Positions 874 to 19,400 of a stretch of 20,000 nt of DNA are shown here, one piece after another. The notes beneath the pieces are model-generated. The model saw nothing but the letters and a program-made list of their open reading frames with translations, did not search any database and was not told the origin of the DNA. Position 1 is the stretch's first letter; each line of letters starts with the position of its first letter. The position numbers and the translations under genes were made by a program. Source of the stretch: an uncultured virus (IMG/VR IMGVR_UViG_3300025098_000027) (Duplodnaviria > Heunggongvirae > Uroviricota > Caudoviricetes); IMG/VR virus record IMGVR_UViG_3300025098_000027; one strand, 5' to 3'.

Positions 874-1632
874 ATGGATATAGTTTTAGTTACAGGTGGA
901 TTTGATCCACTACACTCCGGACACATAGAATATTTTAAAGCGGCGAAAAAACTAGGAGATCACTTAGTTGTAGGTGTTAACAGTGACGAATGGTTAACAC
1001 GCAAAAAGGGAAGACCTTTTATGTCGTTTGATGAACGGTGTGCAATTATAAAAGAACTCAGTGTTGTAGATGAAGTTATAGGGTTCGACGACATAGACGA
1101 TACTGCTAATCACGCAATAATGCAAGTAGTATCTACAAAAAGTTCAAAATCAAAACTTATTTTCGCCAATGGCGGAGATAGATCAAAATCTAACATACCC
1201 GAAATGAAATTTACAGATGTTGAATTTGTCTTTGGCGTTGGCGGAGAAAACAAAGCTAATAGCAGTAGTTGGATACTCGACGAATGGAAAACACAAAAGA
1301 CAGAACGTGATTGGGGCTACTGGCGTGTGTTAGATCACAAACCTAAGCAAGGTTACAAAGTAAAAGAGCTTGTAATATATCCCGGCAAATCACTCAGTGA
1401 CCAAAAACACTTTAAACGTTCAGAAGAATGGAATGTACTAGAAGGTATAGTTAAAATGGACACTGAGCTGAATGGTATACAAAGTAGTATACTACTAGAA
1501 CAAAAAAGTAAAACATTTGAAATTGGTAAAGAAGTTTGGCACAAAGCAAGCAATCCCGGAACAGAAAATACTCATATACTAGAAGTACAATGGGGAGAAC
1601 AATGCGTGGAGGAAGATATTGAAAGAAGATAA
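874..1632 (+). CDS. Cytidylyltransferase-family (RfaE/TagD-like) domain fused to a type II mannose-6-phosphate-isomerase-like cupin
   Basis: N-terminal TGGFDPLHSGH (HxGH), VGVNSD, RKKGRPF, FANGGDR and NSSS. C-terminal RDWGYWRVL, PGKSLSDQKHFKRSEEW, WHKASN and EVQWG...EEDIER. Confidence 0.85.
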   Translation: MDIVLVTGGFDPLHSGHIEYFKAAKKLGDHLVVGVNSDEWLTRKKGRPFMSFDERCAIIKELSVVDEVIGFDDIDDTANHAIMQVVSTKSSKSKLIFANGGDRSKSNIPEMKFTDVEFVFGVGGENKANSSSWILDEWKTQKTERDWGYWRVLDHKPKQGYKVKELVIYPGKSLSDQKHFKRSEEWNVLEGIVKMDTELNGIQSSILLEQKSKTFEIGKEVWHKASNPGTENTHILEVQWGEQCVEEDIERR

Positions 1633-3322
1633 ATTAAAAATTTATGTAGGCTGGGACCGAAGAGAAGACATTGCATACCAGGCGTGTAAGCAGAGTATTC
1701 TTAATACAGCAACAGTCGAAGTAGATATTATTCCGTTAAAACAGAAACAACTTAGAAAAGACGAGTTGTATTGGAGAGAAAAGGATAAACTTGCAAGTAC
1801 AGAATTTACATTTACTAGATTCCTTGTTCCTGAACTTCAAGAGTTTGATGGATGGGCTTTATTCATTGACTGTGATTTTATTGCTCTTGAAGATGTTAAA
1901 AATTTATTTGATCAAAGAGATGACAAATATGCAGTAATGTGTGCTCAACACGATTATACTCCTAAACAGGGCATAAAAATGGACGGACAACAACAGACAG
2001 TTTATCCACGTAAAAATTGGTCTAGTATGATGTTAATTAATTGCGGACATCATTCTAATAAACAACTAACTAAAGAGCTAGTTAATAACGAAGAAATTAC
2101 TGGAGCATACTTGCATAGATTTAGTTGGTTAGACGACAGTGAAGTAGGCGAACTTAGTCACGAATGGAATTGGTTAGTAGGTTGGTACAAAGAACCGGAA
2201 GATGGTAAGCCTAAGTTTCTACATTATACAGAAGGCGGCCCGTGGTTTGAACGATATCAAAATTGTGAATATGCAAATGAATACTATAAAGCTGAACGTA
2301 AGTATCTTACTAGTGAATATCACAACATATCTAATAAACTAAGTACTGAAAAACGAATACCTAAATTAGTTAACAATTTATCATTGCCTGATAGTTTACG
2401 GCAATCAATTGAGGCTTTTACATATGCAACAATTGATCCCGAAGGAACTTACTACGGCTATACTGAGGAAAATGCTATGAAAATTATACAGAATAAATTT
2501 CAACAAGGAAAGACTGCAAAGGTAGCAGCAATATTTAATGACGACTTAAATTACGATAATAAATCGTACGTATACGATGAATATCTAGAAGCACTAAGTT
2601 TAGGCAGCGGCGGCAAATTGAGTAGTTGGGATAAAGAAAAAAATACAAATACTCCGTTAATTATTCGAGGAGTTGGAAAGTCTAGTAGAGAAGCAGTCAA
2701 GCACTGTTGGGAAACTGGTAGAGAGTTTTATGCAATCGACACAGGATATTTTGGTAATACAAAAAGTAAATCAAAAGGCTGGCATAGAGTTACAAAAAAT
2801 AATTTACAAGACTATGGTCCAATTATCGAACGTCCTACAGATAGGTTACTAGGATGGAAATATAAAAAATTTAAAAAAGGAAGTAAAATATTAATATGTC
2901 CTCCTAGTGACAAAGTTATGAAATTCTTTGATCAACCTAGCCCAGAGGAATGGACAAAACAAATAGTAGCACAATTAAAGAACATTACTGATCGACCAAT
3001 CGAAGTTAGATTAAAACCTAATAGAACACATAGAATAACTGGTAATTCTATTGAAGATGCACTATCAAACAATGTTCATTGTCTTATAACATACAACAGC
3101 ATTGCTGCCTTAGAAGCGTTAAATTTTGGAAAACCTGCTATCGCACTTGGTCCTAATTGCGCATCAATTGTATGCAATACTAAATTAGAAGAAGTAGAAA
3201 ATTTGCATATACCAGACAAAGATGAAATGACTGCTTTAATGTCACACCTTAGTTATTGTCAATTTTCAAGAAATGAGTTGATGAACGGCTTTGCTTGGGA
3301 TACTGTTAATGAAAGTCGTTAG
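1619..3322 (+). CDS. Two-domain glycosyltransferase: GT8/CDI-like GT-A domain plus KpsS-like GT-B domain
   Basis: TTG start with GGAGGA at 1608-1613. N-half: IYVGWD, STEFTFTRF, DCD (DxD), YPRKNWSS, WNWL, HYTEGGPWF. C-half: IDTGYFG, ICPPS, VRLKP, TYNSIAALEALNFGKP, HLSYCQF. Confidence 0.8.
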   Translation: MKEDKLKIYVGWDRREDIAYQACKQSILNTATVEVDIIPLKQKQLRKDELYWREKDKLASTEFTFTRFLVPELQEFDGWALFIDCDFIALEDVKNLFDQRDDKYAVMCAQHDYTPKQGIKMDGQQQTVYPRKNWSSMMLINCGHHSNKQLTKELVNNEEITGAYLHRFSWLDDSEVGELSHEWNWLVGWYKEPEDGKPKFLHYTEGGPWFERYQNCEYANEYYKAERKYLTSEYHNISNKLSTEKRIPKLVNNLSLPDSLRQSIEAFTYATIDPEGTYYGYTEENAMKIIQNKFQQGKTAKVAAIFNDDLNYDNKSYVYDEYLEALSLGSGGKLSSWDKEKNTNTPLIIRGVGKSSREAVKHCWETGREFYAIDTGYFGNTKSKSKGWHRVTKNNLQDYGPIIERPTDRLLGWKYKKFKKGSKILICPPSDKVMKFFDQPSPEEWTKQIVAQLKNITDRPIEVRLKPNRTHRITGNSIEDALSNNVHCLITYNSIAALEALNFGKPAIALGPNCASIVCNTKLEEVENLHIPDKDEMTALMSHLSYCQFSRNELMNGFAWDTVNESR

Positions 3323-6854: not shown

Positions 6855-8072
6855 ATGTTTACAGTAGAAGATTATATAGAACTCCTTACCGGATTCCAAG
6901 GTAGTGCAGACATAACACTAGATAGCAGTGACCATTCTCTTATGTTTAGTTTTGCAAAACAAATATCAAATAGTATACCGTTCACTGACAGGCAGTGTGA
7001 CCTTGCTAAAACAAAAATTAGTTATTACAAAGAACAACTTGAAAAAAATAACTATGAGGTAAATGATTTATCGCAGTTGCGTATGCCATTGCGTTCTATT
7101 GACAGAAGTAGATGGATTAAGATTGTTGAATTAAATGATAACGAATTGTGGATAGGCATTAGATTTATTTTTCAAAAGAAATTAATTCTACAACTTGACA
7201 AATTAAAAAGATTAATGTCAGACTCACAAGACGCATTTTATGATAAAGAATATAAAATCCATTATTTTAAATTAAGCGAAAGTAATGTATATGATGTAGT
7301 AAGCACATTTAAAGACATTACTAATTTTGAAGTTCAAGACGAACTTCTTGTATATTTTGAAAAGTTAAAAGAAATGAAAAACAACAAACAGAATTATATA
7401 CCAGGCATATACGGAATGCAACTTAAAAACTTACATACTAAAAGTTTAGACTATGCTATTAGTAGTGTCGGTACTCCAACAGCAGATAATCTATGTCAAT
7501 TTTACGATCAAAAAGATCGATTAGGATTATACCATTTTGATAAAGACGATTTACTTGAAAGTTTAAAACATCTAACTCCGTTATCTCAAAAAATTGTTAA
7601 TAGAGAGTCTCACCAAGTATTAGTTAATTCATCACAATACACAATTAATAATTTAGCAGAAGTAATACTTGAATTATATCGTTTTCCTTTAGTAATAGTT
7701 TTAAATGAAAAACAATGTTATGACGAATTAGTACAGTTTCATAGAGCGTTTAGTGGTATAATACCAAATGAACGTTGTAGTGTATTATTTAGATTAGATA
7801 ATAATTCAGAAGGTGAGGAATTTAATCAATATATCAAAGCTAATAATCTTAATAATAAGGTTGACAATAATACAAAAATAGTGTATATTAGTAATAATAA
7901 AGTTCCGAAGCCTTTGTTAAAAAGTGATTGGTTACCGATTACTGCTATAACAACTTCCTCAAATAGAAGTGCTGGCGCAAAAACAGATGCATATATTGAG
8001 ATGCTAGATCTTGTAATGCATTATGATTCTGATGTTAGTCCTTGGAAACGAAAACAAATAGAGACCCTTTAA
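6855..8072 (+). CDS. Hypothetical protein (405 aa), translationally coupled to uvsW
   Basis: Long ORF with its own promoter and a TAATG overlap with the next gene; no motif recognised. Confidence 0.75.
   Translation: MFTVEDYIELLTGFQGSADITLDSSDHSLMFSFAKQISNSIPFTDRQCDLAKTKISYYKEQLEKNNYEVNDLSQLRMPLRSIDRSRWIKIVELNDNELWIGIRFIFQKKLILQLDKLKRLMSDSQDAFYDKEYKIHYFKLSESNVYDVVSTFKDITNFEVQDELLVYFEKLKEMKNNKQNYIPGIYGMQLKNLHTKSLDYAISSVGTPTADNLCQFYDQKDRLGLYHFDKDDLLESLKHLTPLSQKIVNRESHQVLVNSSQYTINNLAEVILELYRFPLVIVLNEKQCYDELVQFHRAFSGIIPNERCSVLFRLDNNSEGEEFNQYIKANNLNNKVDNNTKIVYISNNKVPKPLLKSDWLPITAITTSSNRSAGAKTDAYIEMLDLVMHYDSDVSPWKRKQIETL
7861..7889 (+). promoter_or_regulatory. Intragenic sigma70-type promoter TTGACA-N17-TATATT upstream of uvsW
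   Basis: TTGACA 7861-7866 and TATATT 7884-7889 with a 17-nt spacer. Confidence 0.55.
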
Positions 8073-9535
8073 TGGCAACTTGCAAACTAATAATTGAAGA
8101 TGAAGTAAACATTAAGCTAGAAGGACTAGAGGTTGATGTACGGAGAAAGCTCGCGAATGCTCTTAAGTTTGAAGTGCCATACGCAAAGTATATGCCACAA
8201 TATAAACTTGGTCGATGGGACGGCAAAGTTGCTTTCTTTGGTATTGGCGGTACTGGCTATGTTAATCATCTTGATGTTGTTAGTGAAGTTTTGCAAAAAA
8301 ATAATGTACAAATAATAGACATTGAAGACAATAGACATCCTATACAATTTGACTTCCAACCAGTAACAGAACGTTATTGGGCTGATCAAAATGTACGTTG
8401 GCCAAAAGGACATCCTGCAGAAGGTGAAGAAATTATTCTGCGTGACTATCAAGTAGAGTCAATTAACAACTTTTTAAAACATCCACAGAGCTTGCAACAG
8501 ATTGCTACTGGTGCAGGTAAAACAATTACTACAGCAACACTTTCACATATAACTGAGCCGTATGGACGTAGTCTTATTATCGTGCCTAACAAGAGTCTTG
8601 TTACACAAACAGAGGAAGACTATATTAACTGCGGGCTCGATGCTGGGGTGTACTTCGGCGACAGAAAAGAGTTAGGTAAGACTCACACTATTTGCACTTG
8701 GCAGAGTTTGAATATACTCGACAAGAAGCACAAGGACGGAACAGCAGTATTATCATTAGCTGAGTTCTTAGATGGTGTAAGCACTATTATTGTCGACGAA
8801 GTACACCAGGCTAAAGCAGAAGTACTAAAGAATTTACTTACACGTAATTTAAAGAACGCTCCGATACGTTGGGGACTAACAGGCACTGTGCCAAGAGAGA
8901 AGTTTGAGTTTGAAAGTATTCACGCTAGTCTTGGTCCTGTAATTGGTCAAATTAGTGCTAAAGAATTACAAGACAAGGGTGTACTATCACAATGTCACGT
9001 TAACGTAGTACAATTATTAGATACACAATCACATTCAGATTATCAATCAGAATTAAAATATTTAACAACAAATCAGGCAAGATTAGAATACATAGGCAAA
9101 TTATTAAGCACAGTAAAAGAATCAGGAAACACACTTATACTTGTAGATAGAATTAGTGCTGGGGAAATACTTCAAGAACTAATACCAGGTAGTGTGTTTG
9201 TAAAGGGCGATGTAAAATTAAAAGATCGCAAGGAAGCATATGATGAAATTAATGAAGGAACTAACCACGTGGTTATCGCAACATACGGAGTCGCGGCTGT
9301 TGGTATTAATATACCGCGTATTTTTAATCTTGTTCTGCTTGAGCCTGGCAAAAGTTTTGTCAGGGTAATTCAAAGTATTGGTAGAGGCGTTCGTAAGGCA
9401 AAAGACAAAGACTTTGTACAAATTTGGGATATCACATCATCGTGCAAATTTGCAAAGAGACATTTAACACAACGTAAAAAATTCTATAAGGAAGCACAGT
9501 ATCCTTTCACTATAGAAAAAGTAGATTGGAACTAA
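8072..9535 (+). CDS. uvsW: UvsW-like superfamily 2 DNA helicase
   Basis: Q motif LRDYQ, Walker A ATGAGKT, DEVH, GLTGT, GINIP and QSIGRGVR; N-terminal YKLGRWDGK resembles T4 UvsW. Confidence 0.9.
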   Translation: MATCKLIIEDEVNIKLEGLEVDVRRKLANALKFEVPYAKYMPQYKLGRWDGKVAFFGIGGTGYVNHLDVVSEVLQKNNVQIIDIEDNRHPIQFDFQPVTERYWADQNVRWPKGHPAEGEEIILRDYQVESINNFLKHPQSLQQIATGAGKTITTATLSHITEPYGRSLIIVPNKSLVTQTEEDYINCGLDAGVYFGDRKELGKTHTICTWQSLNILDKKHKDGTAVLSLAEFLDGVSTIIVDEVHQAKAEVLKNLLTRNLKNAPIRWGLTGTVPREKFEFESIHASLGPVIGQISAKELQDKGVLSQCHVNVVQLLDTQSHSDYQSELKYLTTNQARLEYIGKLLSTVKESGNTLILVDRISAGEILQELIPGSVFVKGDVKLKDRKEAYDEINEGTNHVVIATYGVAAVGINIPRIFNLVLLEPGKSFVRVIQSIGRGVRKAKDKDFVQIWDITSSCKFAKRHLTQRKKFYKEAQYPFTIEKVDWN

Positions 9536-10058: not shown

Positions 10059-10427
10059 ATGACAATGAAAGCAGGTAAAATTTGGGGTCAAACGGAATTG
10101 ATCCACGCTAACGGAGTATTAGAGTTTCACCGTATTGAATATAAAGGCGGCTACAAATGTAGCGAACACGAACATCAATTTAAATGGAACGGCTTTTATG
10201 TAGAGTCAGGAAAGATGCTTGTGCGTGTTTGGCAAGACGACCAAGGACTAGTTGATGAAACTATTCTTGAAGCAGGAGACTTTACACAAGTAAAGCCAGG
10301 CAAGATCCACCAGTTTGAAGGTATCGAAGACGGTGTAGCATTTGAGCTATATTGGGCAGAGTTTAATCACAACGATATTGTACGTAGAACAAGTGGAACA
10401 GCAATTGGCAAAACTAAAACCAAATGA
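10059..10427 (+). CDS. Cupin-domain protein (sugar isomerase-like)
   Basis: KIWG, CSEHEHQFKWNGFYVESG and LEAGD...PGKIHQF cupin motifs; GGAG SD. Confidence 0.8.
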   Translation: MTMKAGKIWGQTELIHANGVLEFHRIEYKGGYKCSEHEHQFKWNGFYVESGKMLVRVWQDDQGLVDETILEAGDFTQVKPGKIHQFEGIEDGVAFELYWAEFNHNDIVRRTSGTAIGKTKTK

Positions 10428-10662
10428 AGCATTGATATACGAGCGTAACGATGGTGTTGTCTACGCTCGTTATCAAAACAGGCCCGAGATACCTCGCTGG
10501 ATTATAGGCGGAGACCCGGCAGGAGTTGCTAGAGCTCAAGGAGACTTAATAAGTTATGCCGAGTGGCAAGAATTATGTGAGTTGTCAGAAGAATATCCAA
10601 CACTAAAAAAACTATTAGATACCTTAGTAACAACTTATTATACAATTAAGGAACACAAATGA
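10405..10662 (+). CDS. Small hypothetical protein (start uncertain, TTG 10405 or GTG 10393)
   Basis: Fills the gap between the two cupins; ATGA overlap with 10659; sequence LKPNEALIYERNDGVVYAR. Confidence 0.6.
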   Translation: MAKLKPNEALIYERNDGVVYARYQNRPEIPRWIIGGDPAGVARAQGDLISYAEWQELCELSEEYPTLKKLLDTLVTTYYTIKEHK

Positions 10663-10988
10663 AATACAGTGAATGGGATATAGGAGGCGATGTAGTTAAA
10701 AATGACAATCGTTATATTGTTAAAGATAATACTATGTTAAAAAATTTAGTTGTAAGCAGTACAATGTTATCAGCTCATAAAAGTACAACAGGACATAGAC
10801 ACGCTGGACAAGAAGAAGTGTATATGTTTGTTAAAGGTAGTGGACAAATGGAACTTGATCATAAAATATTCGATGTTACAGCAGGCGACACTGTACTAAT
10901 TGAAGACAACGTATTCCACAAAGTACATAATAATACAGACTTTGGATTAAAATTTATTTGCGTATTTGACGGAGGAAGAAAACAATGA
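10659..10988 (+). CDS. Cupin_2 domain protein
   Basis: TTGHRHAGQEEVYMFVKGSG and GDTVLIEDNVFHKVHN metal-binding cupin motifs. Confidence 0.85.
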   Translation: MKYSEWDIGGDVVKNDNRYIVKDNTMLKNLVVSSTMLSAHKSTTGHRHAGQEEVYMFVKGSGQMELDHKIFDVTAGDTVLIEDNVFHKVHNNTDFGLKFICVFDGGRKQ

Positions 10989-11812
10989 GAATTATAGCAG
11001 GCCCTTGCCAACACGAATCATTAGCACACAGTGCAGAGATTGCTAAAGAATGTAAACGTGTATGCGACAAGTACGGTATTGAATATATATTTAAAGCAAG
11101 TTTTGATAAAGCAAATCGTAGTAGTATGCAGGGTAAGCGTGGTGTTGGACTAGAAGCAACTCTGACAGACTTTCTTGCTCTTAAAGTACAGTATGGTGTA
11201 AAGACATTAACTGATGTACATTCTGTAGAACAAATAAAATATATAGAAGCACAATTTAAAAATGCAGTTGATGTCTATCAGATACCTGCATTCTTATGTA
11301 GACAAACTGACCTTATACAGGAAGCGTGTCGTACAGATAAAATTGTTAATATTAAGAAAGGCCAGTTTATGGCGCCTTGGGATATGAAAGGGGTGCTAAG
11401 TAAATGTGAAGGCGCAAAAGACGTCTGGATAACAGAGAGAGGAACAAGTTTTGGCTATAACACTCTTGTCGTTGATTATACTGGTATTATGTATATGCTC
11501 GACAATTATGAACATCCTATTGTTTTCGATTGTACGCACTCTGCACAAAAACCCGGCGGACAAGGGGATAGTTCAGGCGGCAATCGTGATTACGTGCCTG
11601 GGTTGGCTCGTAGCGGGTCTGCTCTTGGGGTACGGGACTTTTTCTTGGAAGTCCATCCAGATCCTGATGTAGCACCCAGTGACGGACCTAATATGCTACG
11701 TTTAGAGGATTTTGAACAAGTAGTAGAAGATATTATAGCATATTCGTATACACCTAAAGAAAAAGTTCCTCTTGATAGAAACTATACAGGTTTTAGATAT
11801 CAGGAGTGCTAA
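10985..11812 (+). CDS. kdsA: KDO8P synthase (2-dehydro-3-deoxyphosphooctonate aldolase), metal-dependent type
   Basis: IAGPCQHES, KASFDKANRSS, QIPAFLCRQTDL, NIKKGQF, TERG, FDCTHS, FLEVHPDP and SDG. Confidence 0.95.
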   Translation: MRIIAGPCQHESLAHSAEIAKECKRVCDKYGIEYIFKASFDKANRSSMQGKRGVGLEATLTDFLALKVQYGVKTLTDVHSVEQIKYIEAQFKNAVDVYQIPAFLCRQTDLIQEACRTDKIVNIKKGQFMAPWDMKGVLSKCEGAKDVWITERGTSFGYNTLVVDYTGIMYMLDNYEHPIVFDCTHSAQKPGGQGDSSGGNRDYVPGLARSGSALGVRDFFLEVHPDPDVAPSDGPNMLRLEDFEQVVEDIIAYSYTPKEKVPLDRNYTGFRYQEC

Positions 11813-12493
11813 ATGAAAACTGCAATACTCATACCCGCTAGATATGGTAGTACACGCTACCCTGGAAAGCCTCTAGCTATGCTGAACGGTGTTCCTATGA
11901 TAAAACGTGTGTATGACGCTTGTGTTGCGTCTAAGAAGCCAACATATGTGCTTACTGATGATCAAAACATATACAATGTAATAGGTGCAGATTGTCTATT
12001 AGATCACAGCGAATACGAAAACGGAACCGAACGATGTGCAGGCGCTGTTGCTAAGTTTAACATATTAGATGAGTACGAACAGTTTATAAATGTACAAGGC
12101 GATATGCCGGACGTAACAGATGAGATGATTCTAACGGCTACTGGATGGCTAAAATACTATCCTGTCAGTACATTGTTTACGCATATGCCTAAAGAAAAAC
12201 AGGCAGACCCTAATACAGTAAAGATGGTACGTGCCGGCGATCAAGCTCTATGGTTTGGTAGAGGTATGACCGGGTACGGAGATTGGCATTTAGGTGTATA
12301 CGGATATAAACGTAATTCTTTAGAAATGTACAAAACTCTTAAAGTAACTGTAGAAGAAGAAACGGAAAAATTAGAACAACTTAGATGGCTCAAAAATGGT
12401 TGGCAAATAGGTTGTTCGAGTGTACAATATAATGGAGTAGAGATAAATTCACCAGAGGATGTAGACGAATGGCATACCAAGAATTTCCAGTAA
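11813..12493 (+). CDS. kdsB: CMP-Kdo synthetase (3-deoxy-manno-octulosonate cytidylyltransferase)
   Basis: IPARYGSTRYPGKPL, GTER, NVQGD, HLGVYGY and EKLEQLR; directly follows kdsA. Confidence 0.93.
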   Translation: MKTAILIPARYGSTRYPGKPLAMLNGVPMIKRVYDACVASKKPTYVLTDDQNIYNVIGADCLLDHSEYENGTERCAGAVAKFNILDEYEQFINVQGDMPDVTDEMILTATGWLKYYPVSTLFTHMPKEKQADPNTVKMVRAGDQALWFGRGMTGYGDWHLGVYGYKRNSLEMYKTLKVTVEEETEKLEQLRWLKNGWQIGCSSVQYNGVEINSPEDVDEWHTKNFQ

Positions 12494-12924
12494 AAGATGT
12501 ACTAGCGTGTATTGACAGCAACGCTAAATCTGTTTGGAAAGAATTAACTGACGAACAAAAGAAGTGTGTTAACTTTTGGTTGCTTAACAGATACGCAAGT
12601 AGTGTACAAGGATCAAGAGATGCACAAGAACTTGCTATTGTACTTACTAACGAATACTATAACAAGAACTGGAATGTGTTAGGTACAAGACATCCTCAAT
12701 TACAATGGCAGTTGCTATGCTCAACACATAATGCATCTGCTGCGATTAGAAAACATCAATGGATTGGATTTAAAAAGAAAAAAGGCAACAACAATGCTAT
12801 AAAACTTTTACAAAAAATACATCCTAATATGAAACAAGACGAGGTAGAATTACTTGCTGGATTATCTACAAAGAAAGAACTCAAAGAACTTGCAAAGGAG
12901 TATGATATTGATATCAAACTCTGA
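12469..12924 (+). CDS. Putative clamp-loader small subunit (T4 gp62-like)
   Basis: FWLLNRYAS, HPQLQWQLL, KHQWIGFKKK and a helical C-terminus resemble the gp62 pattern; replication-gene context. Confidence 0.55.
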   Translation: MAYQEFPVKDVLACIDSNAKSVWKELTDEQKKCVNFWLLNRYASSVQGSRDAQELAIVLTNEYYNKNWNVLGTRHPQLQWQLLCSTHNASAAIRKHQWIGFKKKKGNNNAIKLLQKIHPNMKQDEVELLAGLSTKKELKELAKEYDIDIKL

Positions 12925-13603
12925 GAAACCATACAAGTGTGAGTATTGTGGTAATGGATATATGCGGGAGAAAACTCTTGCGGCGCATATGTGCGAAAAG
13001 AAAAGAAGATGGCTACAAAAAGACGAAAAAAGAGTAAGGTATGGACTATATGCATTTCAAAGATTCTATAAACTCTCAGCAGGTAACAAAAAAGAAAAAA
13101 CGTATGAAGATTTTGTCGGGTCACCCTATTATAATGCTTTTGTTAAATTTGGCAGTTTTATTAGCAATGTACGGCCTTTATATCCTGAAAAATATATTGA
13201 CTACGTAGTTACTAGTGGAGTTAAATTAGATCACTGGGCTAGAGATGAGCTGTATGAAAAATACGCATTAGAGTTTATTCTAAAAGAAGATGTAACTACA
13301 GCACTTGAGCGTAGTATACAAACAATGCTAGAATGGGCTGCTGATAATGATCCTGCTCCGTGGGATCATTACTTTAACCATATTAGTTTGAACAGAGCAG
13401 TATGGGATATTAAAGATGGTAAGATTAGTCCTTGGCTATTACTAAACTGTAAGTCTGGCAAAGCTATGCTAGGTAAATTCAACAACGAACAACTTGAAAT
13501 GGTATTCCACGTTATTAACCCTCAACACTGGGCAATGCGTTTTAAACGTTTGCCAAATGATGTGCAACTAGTAAAAGAGATTGCACAGGAAAGTAAACTA
13601 TGA
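12902..13603 (+). CDS. Hypothetical protein with an N-terminal zinc finger
   Basis: EKPYKCEYCGNGYMREKTLAAHMC (CxxC-x12-H-x-C); start approximate. Confidence 0.7.
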   Translation: MILISNSEKPYKCEYCGNGYMREKTLAAHMCEKKRRWLQKDEKRVRYGLYAFQRFYKLSAGNKKEKTYEDFVGSPYYNAFVKFGSFISNVRPLYPEKYIDYVVTSGVKLDHWARDELYEKYALEFILKEDVTTALERSIQTMLEWAADNDPAPWDHYFNHISLNRAVWDIKDGKISPWLLLNCKSGKAMLGKFNNEQLEMVFHVINPQHWAMRFKRLPNDVQLVKEIAQESKL

Positions 13604-14193
13604 TAGAAGAATGGTTTAAAACACCGATACATATCGGTAGCGCAACTAACTTTAAAAATTTACAAAAAGAGATATCGTCGTGTACTTCACAGATTGATTT
13701 TAAAAAACATCCAGATTGGGGAGGGCAAAATCATTCGTTAAGTAGCCCTAACTTTGATCAAAATATTATAACTAAATTTAATTTAACGCAACTTAAGAAC
13801 GAAATAGAAACACAAGTAATTAACTATACAAAGGGTTTTAGTAATACAAAGTATAATATTATTATAGAAGATTGTTGGATAGCTAACACTGCACCAAAAG
13901 AACATACAGTTGTACATAATCACGGTACTACACATATTTCCGGTGTTTATTATTTTAAGACAAACGAAAAAGACGGGAACATATATTTTTTAAATCCTAT
14001 CGTATCATTAATGAATTCACATTTTCTAGCACCAGATGATTATGTAGAGTACCCACCGAAAGAAGGTTTGTTTCTTTTATTTCCTAGTTGGCTATTTCAC
14101 GGAGTTAGATCAAATGATACTAAGGATAATAGAATTAGTATTTCGTTTAATGTAACCTTAACAAAAGATAATACACAAGAAAGCAAACTATGA
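13573..14193 (+). repeat. Imperfect 31-nt direct repeat (13573-13603 and 14163-14193) flanking the 2OG oxygenase gene
   Basis: aaaagagattgcacaggaaagtaaactatga vs aaaagataatacacaagaaagcaaactatga (26/31 identical); both genes end QESKL*. Confidence 0.8.
13600..14193 (+). CDS. 2OG-Fe(II) oxygenase superfamily protein
   Basis: WIAN, HNH, ISGVYY, FPSWLFHGV and RISISFN. Confidence 0.88.
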   Translation: MIEEWFKTPIHIGSATNFKNLQKEISSCTSQIDFKKHPDWGGQNHSLSSPNFDQNIITKFNLTQLKNEIETQVINYTKGFSNTKYNIIIEDCWIANTAPKEHTVVHNHGTTHISGVYYFKTNEKDGNIYFLNPIVSLMNSHFLAPDDYVEYPPKEGLFLLFPSWLFHGVRSNDTKDNRISISFNVTLTKDNTQESKL

Positions 14194-14390
14194 GGAAATT
14201 ATTAAACGGTAGTGAAGTACAGGATGAAGAGAACGCTGATAACCTATTAGTATATACCAAGTGTCCTACAAAATATAAATTAGTAGATATGGAAACAGGC
14301 GATGAGTATATGGGTTTACCTTTTGGGTCAAGGCACCCGAGTGGATTGTATGATGTGTATTGGGAAAAAATAGGAAAGAACAATGCCTGA
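14190..14390 (+). CDS. Small hypothetical protein (66 aa)
   Basis: ATGA overlap upstream and 8-nt overlap with the next gene; TKCPTKYKLVDMETGDEYMG. Confidence 0.7.
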   Translation: MRKLLNGSEVQDEENADNLLVYTKCPTKYKLVDMETGDEYMGLPFGSRHPSGLYDVYWEKIGKNNA

Positions 14391-14943
14391 TATTGATATA
14401 GACTTTGCAGACAGAGATGTTATTTTATCTCAACTTGAACATCGTGTGGCAAAATTAAACACCGGCAAGAAGCACAACACTGGTGTTTATGCTACAGAGA
14501 TTCCCCATAACCCTGTAGACAACTTGAGTACAATTGAACACAAGACAGCAGAAGACAGAGGTTACTTTAAACTAGATTTTTTAAATGTGTCTATATATAA
14601 AGATGTTAAAGACGAGGCACATTTACAAGAACTTATGGAAAAGGAGCCAATATGGCAACTACTGGAACACAAAGACTTCTCAGATCAAGTATTTCATCTA
14701 AGCGGTCACGACGAACTATTACAGCAATTGAAGCCTACTTCGGTACAACAATTGGCGGCTACACTGGCAATTATCAGACCAGCAAAGCGACACTTAGCAA
14801 AAGAAAATTGGGAAACGATAATGAACGAAGTATGGACAAAGCCGACAGACGGAGCATACTTCTTTAAGAAAGCACACGCATATGCGTATGCTACAAGTGT
14901 CATAGTCCATATGAATTTGTTATGCGAACAAATTAACTCTTAG
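14383..14943 (+). CDS. dnaE: Miniaturised DNA polymerase III alpha (DnaE-like catalytic core only)
   Basis: PDIDIDF, KHNTGVY, YFKLDFLN, VFHL, LKPTSVQQLAATLAIIRP and YFFKKAHAYAYA occur in the order of the DnaE motifs. Confidence 0.8.
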   Translation: MPDIDIDFADRDVILSQLEHRVAKLNTGKKHNTGVYATEIPHNPVDNLSTIEHKTAEDRGYFKLDFLNVSIYKDVKDEAHLQELMEKEPIWQLLEHKDFSDQVFHLSGHDELLQQLKPTSVQQLAATLAIIRPAKRHLAKENWETIMNEVWTKPTDGAYFFKKAHAYAYATSVIVHMNLLCEQINS

Positions 14944-15304
14944 GTTTCTTAACTAGTTGCACTGACTTACGCTTTACTCGTTTAATTGCTAAGTTGTTTA
15001 GATTAACACACGGACCAATTGTAACTTTTACATCTTTGCTGTTCATTGTTTGAATAGCATAACGAAATTGATCCATTTCTGTTCTTAAAAAGATGTTGAT
15101 AGGTATCATTCGATTTGATTCCCACCACCATACATCACCTAAGTCAAGTAACATCTTCTTTTCTTTTTCACTTTTTAAATCAGTGTATACGTACATACTT
15201 GTAACATACTGATCTTGATTTATAACGATGCCGACGTACTCGGCGCCACCGTAATGAACTACGCTAATGAATGGAAAATTTTCTTCGATATCTTTTAGTA
15301 ACAT
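14933..15304 (-). CDS. Hypothetical protein (123 aa, basic C-terminus)
   Basis: MLLKDIEENFPFISVVHYGGAEYVGIVIN...WWWESNRMIPINIFL; fills the gap; likely start is ATG 15304. Confidence 0.75.
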   Translation of the reverse strand: MLLKDIEENFPFISVVHYGGAEYVGIVINQDQYVTSMYVYTDLKSEKEKKMLLDLGDVWWWESNRMIPINIFLRTEMDQFRYAIQTMNSKDVKVTIGPCVNLNNLAIKRVKRKSVQLVKKPKS

Positions 15305-15313
15305 TGTTATCCG

Positions 15314-15325
15314 ATAAATACTATT
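15314..15325 (+). promoter_or_regulatory. T4-like late promoter ATAAATACTATT immediately before ATG 15326
   Basis: gATAAATACTATT-ATG; near match to the T4 late consensus TATAAATA; no SD. Confidence 0.65.
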
Positions 15326-16108
15326 ATGCAAACTTTACGATATTTAGTATCAAACAGAATTAACATCCTAGCAAATGAAGCAGGATTCGTTACGGAGTAT
15401 AAACCAGTGTATAGCAGACAGTTAAACGTATATAAAGGAATAGATAATGTCCTTGAATTTAGATTATTAAACGCAGATCAAAAACCATTAGATGTAGATA
15501 GATACACACCTAAGTTTGTAGCGTTCGATGAAAACAATCAAATGGTTATCGAACACGATGGTGTAAACCTACAAGAAGGTGATAGTACTGCATATACTAA
15601 AAAAGGTTTATTTAAAGTTACTATAACTGAAAATGATTTATTGAATATAAAAGATCAGTTTCTATCATACAATGTATATCTAGTTGACTATGACGATACT
15701 AAAGTACAAACTTATGCTAACGAATGGTTTGAAGCACCTGGCATTATTAAAGTCAGCGGTAATGCATTTCCTGGTCCTAGTTCAAGTTATTCAATTGGCA
15801 CATTTGTATCCGATAATGATGCTTGGTTATCTGAGTCTATCGACGCACAGCCGAGTATTAACGGCAATGAAGCTCTACACACTGCGGCTTTTTATACAGA
15901 CAGTTATATAGGCGATGTAGTAGTACAGGGCACACTAGAAAACCAAGTAACTGGATCAACAAGTTGGGCTGATATTGAAACTGTAACGTTTGACGGAACA
16001 GAAACAGAACCTACACCTGTAAACTTTAACGGTGTATTCAATCATTTACGTGTTAAAGCAACAGCAGATCCAGCAGACAAAATTTCCAAAATACTAGTGA
16101 GGAACTAA
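15326..16108 (+). CDS. Hypothetical protein, acidic and beta-rich; possibly virion-associated (late gene)
   Basis: 260-aa ORF behind a late-promoter motif; VYKGIDNVLEFRLLNADQKP and VQGTL...WADI; no enzyme motif. Confidence 0.7.
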   Translation: MQTLRYLVSNRINILANEAGFVTEYKPVYSRQLNVYKGIDNVLEFRLLNADQKPLDVDRYTPKFVAFDENNQMVIEHDGVNLQEGDSTAYTKKGLFKVTITENDLLNIKDQFLSYNVYLVDYDDTKVQTYANEWFEAPGIIKVSGNAFPGPSSSYSIGTFVSDNDAWLSESIDAQPSINGNEALHTAAFYTDSYIGDVVVQGTLENQVTGSTSWADIETVTFDGTETEPTPVNFNGVFNHLRVKATADPADKISKILVRN

Positions 16109-16824
16109 TGCAAGATGTCGTAGTAATAACTACGTTTGCTCAAGATCATATTAATCTTTACGGAAAAAGATTTGTAGATACATTTAAACGCTATTGTCGT
16201 TATCCTTTGTATATATTTGCAGAAGATTTTAGTAGTGATCAGTTCTACGGACATACTGTATATGATTACTATAAACATATTCCTGAGCAGCTAACATTTA
16301 AAAATAATATATTAAATCTATTTCCATCTTTAGATACAAAAGAGCAGAATAGATTACGTAAAGCACTGCGTTGGAGTTATAAAGGGTTTGCTATATGGTA
16401 TGCTCTTAAAAATATAGATACAAAATATATTGTATGGATCGATGCTGATGTTGAAACTCTATCAAAGATACCTTCTAGTTTAATAAGTTCATTATGTGAA
16501 GATAAATTATTAATGTGTTATCCTCAACGAATGAAAGGTAGTCTTCACGTAGAATCTGGATTTGTAATTTTTAACAAGCAACACCCAGAAATAGATTTAG
16601 TAATACAACATTACGAGAACGGTTATCTTAATCAGCAAGTGCTTGAACTTTCAAAGCCGTGGGACGGTTTTTGGCTAGGAAAATTTATCGAGCAATCAAA
16701 CAATTGCTGTTTAGAACGTACACCATTTAAAAATATAGAATCATTCTTTAAGCATTATGTTGGTAAAGAAAAGTTTCAAGATACTAGTTTGAACAAATAC
16801 TCGGGCCGAAAATCATTGACATAA
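16108..16824 (+). CDS. GT-A fold glycosyltransferase, paralog of 5078..5920
   Basis: VVITTF, YGKRFVDTF, RWSYK, WIDAD (DxD), ESGF, WDGF and HYVG; TAATG overlap. Confidence 0.75.
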   Translation: MQDVVVITTFAQDHINLYGKRFVDTFKRYCRYPLYIFAEDFSSDQFYGHTVYDYYKHIPEQLTFKNNILNLFPSLDTKEQNRLRKALRWSYKGFAIWYALKNIDTKYIVWIDADVETLSKIPSSLISSLCEDKLLMCYPQRMKGSLHVESGFVIFNKQHPEIDLVIQHYENGYLNQQVLELSKPWDGFWLGKFIEQSNNCCLERTPFKNIESFFKHYVGKEKFQDTSLNKYSGRKSLT

Positions 16825-16844
16825 CCCTACACTGACGCTATAAT
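16816..16844 (+). promoter_or_regulatory. Consensus sigma70 promoter TTGACA-N17-TATAAT
   Basis: TTGACA 16816-16821, TATAAT 16839-16844, then 6 nt and the primase ATG at 16851. Confidence 0.88.
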
Positions 16845-16850
16845 AATAGT

Positions 16851-17834
16851 ATGAGTGTAGTAAGCGAAACAGTTCTGACATACTTGCCGCCTAAGCGCAA
16901 ACAAACGCCTAGTGGCTGGTTATCCTTTAATGCTACGTGTTGTCACCATAATGGACACGCAGCAGACACTCGCGGCCGTGGTGGCCTTATAAGTAACCCA
17001 GATGGAGGCGTAAGTTATCATTGTTTTAACTGCGGCTTCAAGGCATCCTGGCAACCGGGCAGGAACTTCTCACATAAACTGCGTAAACTCCTACAATGGA
17101 TGGGAGCACCTGACGATGTAATCAATAAGGTAGCACTAGAGGTTATGAGAGAAAATGAAGGAGTTGAAGCTAAAACACAAATAGCCCAACTACCAACTTT
17201 CAATACTGTCCCGTTGCCAGACGATGCTATTAAAATTACAGACATAACAGACTTTAACAAGTATAGTATGGCAGTACTTGAGTATATGGCTGCACGTAAT
17301 TTAAACGTTGATGATACAGACTATTACTGGAGCCCCAGCTTAGGGTATCGTGATAGATTGATCATACCCTTCTACTTTGAAGGTAGGGTAGTAGGATGGA
17401 CTGGACGTAGCGTGAACCCAGACAAGAAGCCCAAGTACTTGACCGAAGTGCAACCTGGGTTTGTGTACGGACTAGACGAGCAGTCTTATAAAAAAGTATT
17501 TGCGATACTCTGTGAAGGACAAGTCGATGCTATACACATAGAAGGTTGTGCGCTAGGTGGTAGTGAAATATCTAGTCAGCAAGCAATGCTGCTCAATAGA
17601 CTACAGAAGCAAATCATTGTTGTTCCTGATCGTGACAAGGCAGGAAGTAAACTAGTAGAAGAAGCAATTGATCTAGGTTGGAGTGTGAGTATGCCTGATT
17701 GGCCTACTGGACTAAATGACATAGGTGATGTAGTAGAAAAACACGGTAGGTTATATGCATTACATACTATAGCAAGCAGTGCCGAAGACAGTGCATTAAA
17801 AATTAGACTGAGAGCGAAGAAATGGTTCGACTGA
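16851..17834 (+). CDS. dnaG: DNA primase (T4 gp61/DnaG-like: Zn-binding plus TOPRIM domain)
   Basis: Zn ligands TCCHH and YHCFNCG; RLIIP, GR and KYL; TOPRIM CEGQVDA, PDRDKAG and ND. Confidence 0.9.
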   Translation: MSVVSETVLTYLPPKRKQTPSGWLSFNATCCHHNGHAADTRGRGGLISNPDGGVSYHCFNCGFKASWQPGRNFSHKLRKLLQWMGAPDDVINKVALEVMRENEGVEAKTQIAQLPTFNTVPLPDDAIKITDITDFNKYSMAVLEYMAARNLNVDDTDYYWSPSLGYRDRLIIPFYFEGRVVGWTGRSVNPDKKPKYLTEVQPGFVYGLDEQSYKKVFAILCEGQVDAIHIEGCALGGSEISSQQAMLLNRLQKQIIVVPDRDKAGSKLVEEAIDLGWSVSMPDWPTGLNDIGDVVEKHGRLYALHTIASSAEDSALKIRLRAKKWFD

Positions 17835-17912: not shown

Positions 17913-17957
17913 CGCCGAGCATAATTACAATAGAAGAACTAGAACCAAGGGTATTTG

Positions 17958-19400
17958 ATGACAACTAGACAAAACACAGACTATGGATATGATATACAAA
18001 AAGTATATTTAGAAATGATGCTGTCTGATGCTGAGAGCTTTGTACGCTGTCAGGCTGTATTTGATCCGGATAGTTTTGATAGAAGACTAAAGGCGCCAGC
18101 AGAGTTTCTCAACAACTATGTTATGGAACACAATGCATTGCCTACACTTGATATGATCAATGCGGCAACAGACATTAATTTAAAAGATGTAGGTGAACTA
18201 CAAGAGAATCACTATGATTGGCTACTAGCAGAGTTTGAAACATTTAGTAAACACAAAGCACTAGAAGCGGCAATCCTTAAGAGTGCTGACCTGTTAGAAA
18301 ATGGTGACTATGGACAGTGTGAAGACTTGGTCAAGAAAGCTGTACAGATAGGACTACAAAAAGACTTGGGTACAGACTACTATGCTGATCCAAGAGCTAG
18401 ACTAGAAGGCATCAAGAGTACAAACGGACAGGTAAGCACAGGCTGGCCAGCTATGGACAAGAAATTGTTTGGTGGCTTCAACAGAGGCGAGCTGAATATC
18501 TTTGCAGGTGGTTCGGGTGCAGGTAAGAGTTTGTTCCTTGCTAACATTGGCGTTAATATGGCTGAGAAAGGGTTGAACGTGATCTACTTGACACTAGAGC
18601 TTGCAGAGAGTCTAGTTAGTATGAGACTTGATAGTATGACTACTGGCATTCCGAGTCGTGATGTGTTTAAGAGCATTGACGATGTTGAGATGAAAGTTAA
18701 GATGATCGGCAAGAAGAATGGTGCATTCCAAGTCAAGTATATGCCCAGTGGCAAGACAGCAAATGATGTACGTTCATACATTAAAGAATATGAAATTAAA
18801 ACAGGCAAGAAGGTAGACGTACTACTGATTGACTACTTGGACTTGTTGATGCCAGCCAGCACAAAGGTTAGTGCAGAGAACTTGTTTATCAAAGACAAGT
18901 ACGTATCAGAAGAGCTACGTAACCTAGCAATGGAATTGAACACAGTGTTTGTCACAGCGGCACAGTTGAATCGTGGTGCTGTGGAAGAGATTGAATTTGA
19001 TCACTCGCACATATCAGGTGGACTTAGTAAGATCCAGACTGCGGATAACGTGTTTGGTATCTTTACAAGCAGAGCAATGCGTGAACGTGGACGCTATCAG
19101 CTACAGTTGATGAAGACACGTAACTCAAGTGGTGTAGGTCAAAAGATTGATCTAGGCTTTGACCTAGACACTCTGCGTATTGTAGACTTGGATGAAGACG
19201 ATGATGACAATTACGGTTCAGCACCAAATACCAGTGCAGGTGCTAGTGTGCTTGATTCAATCAAACGCAATAGTGTACAGCCAGGAGCGGCAGTCACAGC
19301 AGATCCACAAGAAGGTGCTACAGCCACAAGTGGTAAGATTAGAGCGCAAACTGATTCAACCAAGTTGAGAGACTTTCTCAATAACCTAGACGACGACTAA
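17958..19400 (+). CDS. dnaB: Replicative DNA helicase (DnaB/T4 gp41 family)
   Basis: VSTGW, Walker A AGGSGAGKS, TLEL, Walker B IDYLDL, AQLNR, TAD and KTRN. Confidence 0.92.
   Translation: MTTRQNTDYGYDIQKVYLEMMLSDAESFVRCQAVFDPDSFDRRLKAPAEFLNNYVMEHNALPTLDMINAATDINLKDVGELQENHYDWLLAEFETFSKHKALEAAILKSADLLENGDYGQCEDLVKKAVQIGLQKDLGTDYYADPRARLEGIKSTNGQVSTGWPAMDKKLFGGFNRGELNIFAGGSGAGKSLFLANIGVNMAEKGLNVIYLTLELAESLVSMRLDSMTTGIPSRDVFKSIDDVEMKVKMIGKKNGAFQVKYMPSGKTANDVRSYIKEYEIKTGKKVDVLLIDYLDLLMPASTKVSAENLFIKDKYVSEELRNLAMELNTVFVTAAQLNRGAVEEIEFDHSHISGGLSKIQTADNVFGIFTSRAMRERGRYQLQLMKTRNSSGVGQKIDLGFDLDTLRIVDLDEDDDDNYGSAPNTSAGASVLDSIKRNSVQPGAAVTADPQEGATATSGKIRAQTDSTKLRDFLNNLDDD

Follow-up and report, generated by a model that had tools for sequence, protein, structure and literature searches.

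A miniature DnaE-like gene of an uncultured phage lineage is probably the C-terminal unit of a split minimal DNA polymerase III alpha

The 20,000-nucleotide stretch of DNA analysed here, IMG/VR record IMGVR_UViG_3300025098_000027 from an uncultured member of the Caudoviricetes (the window), carries a very short open reading frame (ORF) with the catalytic motifs of bacterial DNA polymerase III alpha (Pol III alpha, DnaE), and this raises the question as to whether such a gene encodes a polymerase of its own, a part of one or the remains of one. The ORF lies at 14383..14943 on the plus strand, is intact from an ATG start and encodes 186 amino acids (aa), and the original prediction, made from the letters of the sequence, had described it as a miniature DnaE. 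We conclude that it is probably the C-terminal unit, that is the Mg2+-binding palm half with truncated fingers, of a split minimal DnaE-like Pol III alpha as carried by the group 2.2 (RaK2/PA5oct/Atu_ph07-like) jumbo phages. In what follows the window ORF and its homologs are called the C-piece, and the separately encoded DnaE-like partner present in relatives is called the N-piece.

Both the ORF and its translation are exactly as first described, with six motifs in the order in which they occur in DnaE. PDIDIDF, KKHNTGVY, GYFKLDFLN, VFHL, LAIIRP and YFFKKAHAYAYA start at C-piece residues 2, 29, 60, 103, 128 and 159, and their counterparts in the 1160-aa product of Escherichia coli K-12 dnaE were located collinearly at residues 400, 509, 552, 608, 636 and 754. 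From the first to the last motif the C-piece spans 169 residues compared with 366 in E. coli, in keeping with the claim that the motifs fit into about half the E. coli length. On the plus strand the codons of the DxD metal-binding strand, D3-I-D5-I-D7, occupy 14389..14403 and align to E. coli residues 399-406 with D3 and D5 corresponding to D401 and D403, while K63-L-D65 (14569..14577) supplies the counterparts of K553 and of the third catalytic aspartate D555. R132-P133 of LAIIRP (14776..14781) corresponds to the E. coli ALFRPG motif at 636-641, and YFFKKAHAYAYA (residues 159-170, codons 14857..14892) to E. coli YGFNKSHSAAYA at 754-765, with FKKAHAYAYA matching F756-A765. The chain stops 16 residues past the HAYAYA motif.

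Homologs of the C-piece are very abundant in metagenomes, with at least 8,000 found, all at E <= 1e-3 and measuring 184-197 aa among the best 120, and with 416 representatives at 50% identity (E <= 1e-3). Among the 150 representatives listed, 79 are 180-219 aa long, 69 are shorter and are probably fragments from short contigs, one measures 233 aa and one is a 375-aa fusion to which we return below. Two of the listed homologs bear a Tara source label. Among these 150 the catalytic aspartates are kept in nearly all representatives that cover the respective column (D3 124/128, D5 126/128, D7 123/127 and D65 130/135). A profile, A1, was built from 70 full-length members, namely the window protein, the protein of a related IMG/VR contig (G003) and 68 of the 150 listed representatives, chosen by eye as being about 180-220 aa long and covering the query. 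Within it D3, D5, K63, D65 and the R132-P133 pair are invariant, and K162 and H165 are conserved at 90% or more.

Searched against sequences of the Protein Data Bank (PDB), A1 matched Pol III alpha of E. coli, Thermus aquaticus and Mycobacterium tuberculosis with a best E-value of 1.8e-5. On the E. coli chain the match falls into three collinear blocks, 399-418, 539-641 and 739-769, which are identical when the K-12 sequence is used, and it fixes the equivalences D3=D401, D5=D403, D7=D405, K63=K553 and D65=D555, confirming by profile alignment that all three catalytic aspartates have been retained. The single C-piece sequence gave no phmmer match to PDB sequences, a Pfam scan of it returned only a sub-threshold DNA_pol3_finger match (E 0.017) and blastn of the region found no match in phage genomes. 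Among phage protein families it belongs clearly to phrog_11778, annotated 'DNA polymerase' (E 3.7e-59, with residues 3-184 aligned to positions 8-195 of a 197-position profile), and it is matched in part by phrog_405, the family of full-length DnaE. In the Protein Atlas only unnamed viral clusters were found for the C-piece, one of them with PF17657 on 12% of its members.

An AlphaFold2 model of the C-piece made with A1 is of high confidence, with a mean predicted local distance difference test score (pLDDT) of 96.5 and a predicted template modelling score (pTM) of 0.88, and shows five strands, on which the DxD, KHxxGVY and KxD motifs lie, and after them a bundle of helices. In a Foldseek search of the PDB the top 14 rows were all C-family polymerases with probabilities of up to 1.00, the best E-value being 1.2e-3 and none reaching 1e-3, and in BFVD the matches were phage DnaE-type polymerases of about 570-1470 aa. 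In the structural check that the original prediction had proposed, the model superposes on DnaE structures over its whole length. Comparison with VIA gave Z 9.9 for T. aquaticus 3e0d_A (184 residues aligned, root-mean-square deviation (rmsd) 3.6 A, chain residues 461-838), Z 9.9 for M. tuberculosis 5lew and Z 9.2 for E. coli 2hnh (181 aligned, chain residues 400-781), and the best unrelated chain reached only Z 3.2. Three further chains (9qrn, 9qpc and 9qrl) matched at residues 970-1301 with Z 6.5-7.7, and we read these as PolC-type from their residue numbering, their titles not saying so. The C-piece is homologous to the palm and fingers of DnaE, and the match is far beyond chance.

The equivalence of one motif is less easy to assess. 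The pairing of KKHNTGVY with E. coli GKHAGGV has no statistical support by local alignment, as 173 of 500 shuffles score equally, but H31 and G34 of this stretch are nearly invariant across the family and the stretch sits in palm strand E30-36 of the predicted model. We therefore regard this part of the original motif assignment as plausible, though not demonstrable by local alignment.

The 186 residues of the C-piece cover E. coli 400-781, about 380 residues, with E. coli 419-538 shrunk to about 35 residues and 642-738 to about 10. In 2006 Lamers and colleagues reportedly placed the thumb of the E. coli subunit at 433-510 and its fingers at 561-911. Alignment, Pfam and superposition agree with the original prediction that the thumb, most of the fingers and the PHP, clamp-binding and OB domains are absent from the ORF; missing altogether are the thumb, about 100 residues of the fingers and the PHP, beta-binding/HhH, OB and tau-binding parts. 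No Pfam match to PHP was obtained in the C-piece or in the N-piece of G003.

In order to judge whether so reduced a gene is maintained we compared it with 80 related IMG/VR loci. Its frame is intact in all 80, at 185-191 aa, with one locus (L044) starting with TTG, and D3, D5, D7, K63, D65, R132, P133, K162 and H165 are invariant in 80/80 sequences (the window and 79 loci). Nei-Gojobori ratios of nonsynonymous to synonymous substitution (dN/dS) against the window have a median of 0.10 and a range of 0.05-0.15, values which are approximate because only 61 of 79 pairs had a finite dS and the median dS of pairs with the window was 1.7. Over 846 pairs with 0.05<dS<1.5 the median was 0.135, with a maximum of 0.26. 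Purifying selection on the gene is strong, and the intact frames, invariant residues and low dN/dS together exclude a pseudogene. Its length and synteny are kept from marine phages to RaK2, PA5oct and Atu_ph07. The contention that this is a selected minimal Pol-beta-like module and not a product of decay was thus upheld by the very comparison of length, aspartates and dN/dS that had been proposed for it. As regards transcription, RNA-labelled public runs gave only short contigs of relatives covering part of the gene (word shares 0.06-0.25), and since DNA carry-over is possible in such runs they provide no evidence of it.

Where the rest of the palm resides becomes apparent from related phages. 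A tblastn search with the C-piece found 94 phage records, with full-length matches at 31-51% identity; those listed are mostly jumbo phages of about 284-490 kb (RaK2, PA5oct, Atu_ph07 and 121Q type) with a few shorter ones, and identity to the homologs of PA5oct, Phosso, Atu_ph07 and RaK2 is 35-51%. When the complete genomes of the cultured phages Phosso, PAC2 and RaK2 were searched with phrog_405, all three contained the C-piece and, at a distance of about 34-224 kb from it, another ORF of 169-177 aa that the profile matches with its positions 357-436. We also compared five long IMG/VR contigs whose C-pieces are 73-80% identical to that of the window, of which only G003 (237 kb, 67% complete, C-piece 75% identical) reaches the region of the N-piece, and here too phrog_405 finds a second short ORF. 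Over the three cultured genomes and G003 the N-pieces start their match at profile position 337 or 357 and end it at 436.

In G003 the C-piece lies at about 61 kb, an N-piece of 185 aa at about 183 kb, hence about 122 kb apart, and a family B polymerase at about 211 kb. The G003 N-piece belongs to phrog_11127, passes the Pfam threshold for PF07733 (DNA_pol3_alpha; 38.1 bits against a cut-off of 23.9) and can be aligned to E. coli 272-392, a stretch that contains the GRGS segment. In DnaE this GRGS and Arg segment of the N-terminal palm half binds the incoming deoxynucleoside triphosphate (dNTP). The GS/Arg segment is indeed absent from the C-piece, as had been noted, but it has not been lost, being encoded in relatives by a separate, distant gene of about 170-185 aa. 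Residues 1-72 of the G003 N-piece (L107:1237-1791) form an extension that E. coli DnaE lacks, as the match begins at residue 73, which corresponds to E. coli 272. This extension is strongly conserved in close homologs and occurs also in the 375-aa fusion, where it is modelled with low confidence, and it matches no Pfam family.

The N-piece ends just ahead of the DxDxD that opens the C-piece. In G003 the N-piece terminates in '...REFLR' and the window C-piece begins 'MPDIDIDF', the E. coli counterparts of these ends being residues 392 and 399, and across the relatives the N-piece terminus reads '...EFL' followed by R, K or N. The fission point is identical in Phosso, PAC2, RaK2 and G003, and its identity in four lineages argues for a single ancestral split of the gene.

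All three cultured genomes also encode a family B polymerase, as does G003, in which it is 889 aa long with exonuclease and polymerase domains; the proposed search for a family B polymerase and for other DnaE pieces therefore turned up both in all four. No family A polymerase was found in Phosso, PAC2 or RaK2, and the 20-23 kb of sequence spanned by the window and its nearest record (G001, a 23-kb fragment) contain no family B polymerase. PHP (PF02811) and HhH (HHH_6, PF14579) were above cut-off in none of the four large related genomes, no phrog_405 positions beyond 809 were found in eight records and phrog_405 detected no other DnaE segment at a convincing E-value in the genomes searched. 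One sub-threshold PHP match in G003 proved to be a KdsB-like cytidylyltransferase and not a piece of DnaE, and in Phosso there is a weak phrog_405 match (E 0.0105) at 170115-170195 in a 459-aa frame. In PAC2 (PP408249.1) the family B polymerase match at 202949..206726 is split over frames of 825 and 379 aa about 2.5 kb apart, which suggests that polB of the PA5oct group may be interrupted by an intron or endonuclease. A complementary DnaE fragment, which the original prediction had counted as evidence against a minimal enzyme, does exist in relatives, but with neither PHP nor HhH in the four large genomes the two pieces would rebuild a core of about 370 aa and not an ordinary polymerase. Because a family B polymerase is present, the mini-DnaE is unlikely to be the main replicase.

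The two halves are found as one chain in a single metagenomic protein, P0334, of 375 aa, which is one of the 416 clusters in the representative search. The N-piece matches its residues 15-180 (E 9e-23) and the C-piece its residues 189-370 (E 9e-36), in the order of DnaE and with a short ordinary linker between the halves, and PF07733 extends across the junction with 59.6 bits. Its identity to the four split lineages is 31-44% in the N half and 34-40% in the C half, and being about equally distant from all of them in both halves it fits a genuine gene of a separate lineage better than an assembly chimera. No genomic context or relatives of P0334 were found in viral or metagenome contigs. A tblastn search with P0334 gave 188 places in 96 phage records, none of which covers 80% or more of the query in one place, so that cultured phages carry both halves, always apart. 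By organism name the numbers of N and C halves are 34 and 34 for Escherichia, 8 and 8 for Erwinia, 8 and 8 for Salmonella, 4 and 4 for Xanthomonas and 4 and 4 for Yersinia; the N-piece search picks up phages with an ordinary full-length DnaE as well.

P0334 was folded from a shallow alignment of 31 N-pieces and 3 C-pieces, the only one that placed both halves correctly, and for this reason the model is of low confidence (pLDDT 62.4, pTM 0.43) and cannot show how the halves pack. Its residues 74-258, which run across the junction, superpose on the E. coli palm (271-556) with Z 7.7, rmsd 4.8 A and 179 residues aligned; only C-family polymerases reach Z >= 2, and the PolC structures 3f2b and 3f2c give Z 6.0-6.1. 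The superposition lends at most weak support to a palm formed jointly by both halves. Two other metagenomic proteins have unusual architectures and are possibly assembly or frameshift artefacts: P0394 (425 aa, from a 1.4-kb contig) joins an unrelated N-terminus of about 270 aa to C-piece residues 40-184, and P0342 (233 aa) joins roughly the first 105 C-piece residues to the C-terminus of a pseudouridine synthase.

The C-piece gene is embedded in a replication block, for which we counted neighbours over the 80 related loci, the denominators given being the loci with enough flanking sequence. All genes of the block named here are on the plus strand except for the convergent ORF. A UvsW-type helicase (8042..9535; phrog_16, E 2.1e-79) is found in 59/80 loci, and the gene at the same place in PAC2 and RaK2 is annotated UvsW. 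Upstream of the C-piece in 78/78 loci is a C2H2-type zinc-finger-like protein of 249 aa (12854..13603; phrog_11058, E 6e-63), whose counterpart in PAC2 is annotated as carrying a C2H2-type domain; this constancy may point to a functional link, possibly as a DNA-binding partner. Between it and the C-piece the window has a 2-oxoglutarate (2OG)-Fe(II) oxygenase (197 aa) and a 66-aa ORF, both within 13600..14390 and present in 3/80 and 8/80 relatives respectively, which are a variable insert; the 66-codon ORF is overlapped by the 5' end of the C-piece gene by 8 nt. At the other end, an ORF on the minus strand (14933..15331, 132 aa from a TTG; phrog_11637, E 2.4e-33) converges on the C-piece gene and overlaps it by 11 nt with its own 3' end, and it is convergent in 76/76 loci whose downstream flank is 450 bp or longer and in Phosso, PAC2 and RaK2. 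The Protein Atlas sequence begins at residue 10 of this ORF, so it probably starts at M10 and is 123 aa long; neither Pfam nor the Protein Atlas gave a lead as to its function.

Further downstream are a DnaG/gp61-type primase (16851..17834; phrog_47, E 4.5e-40), found in 55/56 loci whose downstream flank is 3.5 kb or longer, and a DnaB/gp41-type replicative helicase (17955..19400; phrog_19, E 8.7e-72), found in 54/80 loci, a count limited by flank length. The order of the block, UvsW, further genes, C2H2 protein, C-piece, convergent ORF, structural protein, primase and DnaB-type helicase, is common to PAC2, RaK2 and Phosso. The N-piece of G003 is surrounded by a GroES-like gene, MazG, a DEDD exonuclease (Rv2179c-like) and the clamp loader, and its neighbours in Phosso, PAC2 and RaK2 are similar; two tandem 2OG oxygenase genes also lie near the N-piece in G003.

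It had been surmised that genes of this kind may already feature in surveys of large phages, and this is the case. Iyer, Anantharaman, Krishnan, Burroughs and Aravind (Viruses 2021, 13:63, PMC7824862) described the split minimal Pol III alpha from genome comparisons for the group 2.2 jumbo phages and proposed that it models the Pol III module in its ancestral state; the available parts of the article make no mention of a fused form. In the accessible portions of the Atu_ph07, Sharanji and Callisto genome papers a 'DNA polymerase III alpha' gene is listed and nothing more. The mini-DnaE family is therefore already described, and nothing here changes the published picture. C-terminal units of group 2.2 such as RaK2 ORF124 (YP_007007279), PAC2 XAI94078 and Phosso XYS97594 share with the window C-piece the phrog_11778 family, the length class, the catalytic motifs and the gene neighbourhood, and with the relatives of the window a distant N-terminal partner gene and a co-resident family B polymerase; of the T4-like apparatus of this group the window itself holds UvsW, the gp61-like primase and the gp41/DnaB-like helicase. 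Compared with these members the window C-piece comes from an uncultured lineage of low GC content (about 36%) and has the oxygenase and 66-aa ORF inserted upstream.

Bacterial DnaE (E. coli 2hnh, the T. aquaticus ternary complex 3e0d and M. tuberculosis DnaE1 5lew/7pu7) has homologous Pol-beta-like palm strands with the DxD and third aspartate, and its fingers helices with the RP and FxKSHxxxYA motifs are homologous to those of the C-piece. At about 1160-1220 aa, however, it carries the palm on one polypeptide, whereas in the mini-DnaE the palm is distributed over two genes and the 186-aa C-piece is only its C-terminal half, equivalent to E. coli 399-781 after the internal loss of about 200 residues. 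The Firmicutes enzyme PolC (Geobacillus kaustophilus 3f2b/3f2c) has the same C-family palm and fingers core but is more distant than DnaE, and its inserted proofreading exonuclease and different domain order are not present in the mini-DnaE. Full-length phage DnaE-type polymerases, as in group 3.2 (e.g. Bacillus phage G) and in Gordonia, Streptomyces and Bacillus phages, where they are annotated 'DnaE-like DNA polymerase III alpha', have the N-piece palm motif and the C-piece fold in common with the split form, but they are single chains of about 570-1470 aa serving as the replicase while the mini-DnaE is split, minimal and accessory. The group 3.2 enzymes are reported, in the available text of Iyer et al. 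(PMC7824862), to have a PHP domain and to resemble host enzymes.

How the C-piece acts can be approached by weighing the possible explanations against these data. The original prediction favoured a self-sufficient enzyme, and a C-piece that on its own binds dNTP and metal as a complete minimal nucleotidyltransferase or polymerase would account for the conservation of the three aspartates together with K63, R132 and K162/H165, and for the confident folding of the chain alone in prediction (pLDDT 96.5). This is improbable, as the GRGS/Arg dNTP-binding segment is missing from it, the N-terminal half is a separate and equally conserved gene in every complete relative examined, and the N-piece ends exactly where the C-piece starts and is fused to the C half in P0334. 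With the missing half encoded separately in relatives the idea of a self-sufficient 186-aa DnaE was not sustained, and it was another of the options listed at the outset, one subunit of a split polymerase, that is favoured by the partner gene. The idea that the ORF is what decay has left of a full-length dnaE, from phage or host, can be given almost no credence: the shortness of the ORF relative to DnaE and the sub-threshold finger-domain match (E 0.017) would suit it, but not 80/80 intact loci with invariant catalytic residues, a dN/dS of about 0.1 even though dS is nearly saturated, a minimum of 8,000 metagenomic homologs with 416 representatives at 50% identity or the conservation of length and synteny from marine phages to RaK2, PA5oct and Atu_ph07.

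In cyanobacteria the halves of split dnaE genes are joined by a split intein. That two distant phage genes encode consecutive parts of one domain recalls this arrangement, but a covalent chain made post-translationally in this way is next to impossible here since the ends of the N-piece and C-piece, aligning to E. coli 392-393 and 399, leave no room for an intein and carry no extra sequence, Pfam scans of the C-piece and the G003 N-piece show no intein/Hint family (E <= 1-10) and the fused form P0334 has only a short ordinary linker. A more serious alternative is that the two pieces do assemble, but as some other nucleotidyltransferase of the Pol-beta superfamily and not as a templated DNA polymerase, for example as an untemplated terminal transferase, a nucleotide-signal synthase or an enzyme that nucleotidylates nucleic acids or proteins. 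The primer-template holders of DnaE (thumb, HhH/beta-binding, OB and about 100 fingers residues) are gone, a complete family B replicase is already present in relatives and the N-piece has its conserved extension of about 72 residues without a DnaE counterpart, all of which would agree with such a function. Both genes nevertheless lie in replication modules, with primase and helicase in one case and the clamp loader in the other, no sequence feature points to a specific alternative substrate and the retained fingers helices with the FKKSHA motif correspond to the template-strand-binding subdomain as described in the available text of Iyer et al. (PMC7824862). We consider a non-polymerase enzyme unlikely, though to be taken seriously.

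Under the preferred reading, that of a split minimal Pol III alpha, the N and C products would associate non-covalently to form one active site of about 370 aa, and this two-piece enzyme may serve as a second, low-processivity (distributive) nucleotidyltransferase or DNA polymerase in the phage replisome. Alongside the family B replicase it would most plausibly carry out short primer extension, or else gap and repair synthesis, a proposal based on the position of the C-piece in the UvsW-primase-helicase block and of the N-piece in the clamp-loader/MazG/exonuclease block; the placement of the C-piece beside the primase makes primer extension a reasonable guess. A bolder version, in which the two-gene mini-DnaE is an active C-family core without thumb or PHP, the smallest known at about 370 aa in two chains or, in the rare form P0334, in one, and extends primers and hands them off together with the adjacent primase in an otherwise T4-like family B replisome, is doubtful. 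If true, such a role would resemble the division of labour between polymerases known for DnaE and PolC in Bacillus and for Pol alpha and Pol delta in eukaryotes.

A number of points weigh against the split-polymerase reading. The N-piece and the family B polymerase are known from relatives only, the closest being G003 with a C-piece at 75% identity, and four of the five long contigs are without both, although these are 33-73% complete and so are uninformative and not contrary. Only a single fused sequence was found, without genomic context and with a low-confidence model (pLDDT 62). We infer the association of the two halves, and the proposed role of the two-piece enzyme derives from gene neighbourhood only. 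With the thumb, the HhH/beta-binding and OB parts and about 100 residues of the fingers lost, it is uncertain whether synthesis would be templated and processive. In the literature searched there are no biochemical, genetic or expression data for any member of the family, and functional follow-up is likewise absent, this literature consisting of genome-description papers and Iyer et al. 2021.

The C-piece gene also contains a second conserved reading frame, at 14652..14867 on the plus strand, of about 65 codons and offset by 2 from the main frame. The offset-2 frame runs for 85 codons without a stop; synonymous-codon shuffles average 39, none of 200 reaching 85, and only 4 of 46 gene-by-frame tests in the window had p <= 0.015. 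Across 81 genes it stays open for 77 codons on average, compared with 36 in controls, 79 of the 81 exceed their own control, and an ATG stands at the same codon in 77. Third-position entropy of the main frame is not significantly lower in the overlap (0.67 vs 0.72, p 0.12), and the predicted offset-2 peptide is basic, rich in serine and threonine and variable. The evidence for an overlapping gene at this place is thus mixed, and we treat it as a candidate. Offset-1 frames are unusually long in three other plus-strand genes, 10659..10988, 10985..11812 and 15326..16108, with p values of 0.000, 0.005 and 0.015 (200 synonymous shuffles each, uncorrected for the 46 tests).

Elsewhere in the window genes of sugar metabolism, including two cupins, lie within 874..3322 and 10059..12493, all on the plus strand. 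These comprise a cytidylyltransferase/mannose-6-phosphate isomerase fusion (874..1632), a GT8 glycosyltransferase (1619..3322), a 3-deoxy-D-manno-octulosonate (KDO)-8-phosphate-synthase-like gene (DAHP_synth_1; 10985..11812) and a cytidylyltransferase resembling cytidine monophosphate (CMP)-KDO synthetase (11813..12493). A perfect 12/12 sigma-70 consensus (TTGACA, 17 nt, TATAAT) is present at 16816..16844 on the plus strand, ending 7 nt before the primase start codon; across the region promoter-like sites are no more frequent than in shuffles.

What is new here is an abundant member of the mini-DnaE family from an uncultured phage lineage, together with quantitative support: purifying selection on the gene is strong, the fission point is fixed, the two halves strictly co-occur and the structure is modelled with confidence. 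The natural fusion P0334 could serve as a single-chain construct for biochemistry. Consisting of the palm and a stub of the fingers only, encoded by two genes and coexisting with a family B replicase, the mini-DnaE family represents a natural experiment on how little of a C-family replicative polymerase suffices.

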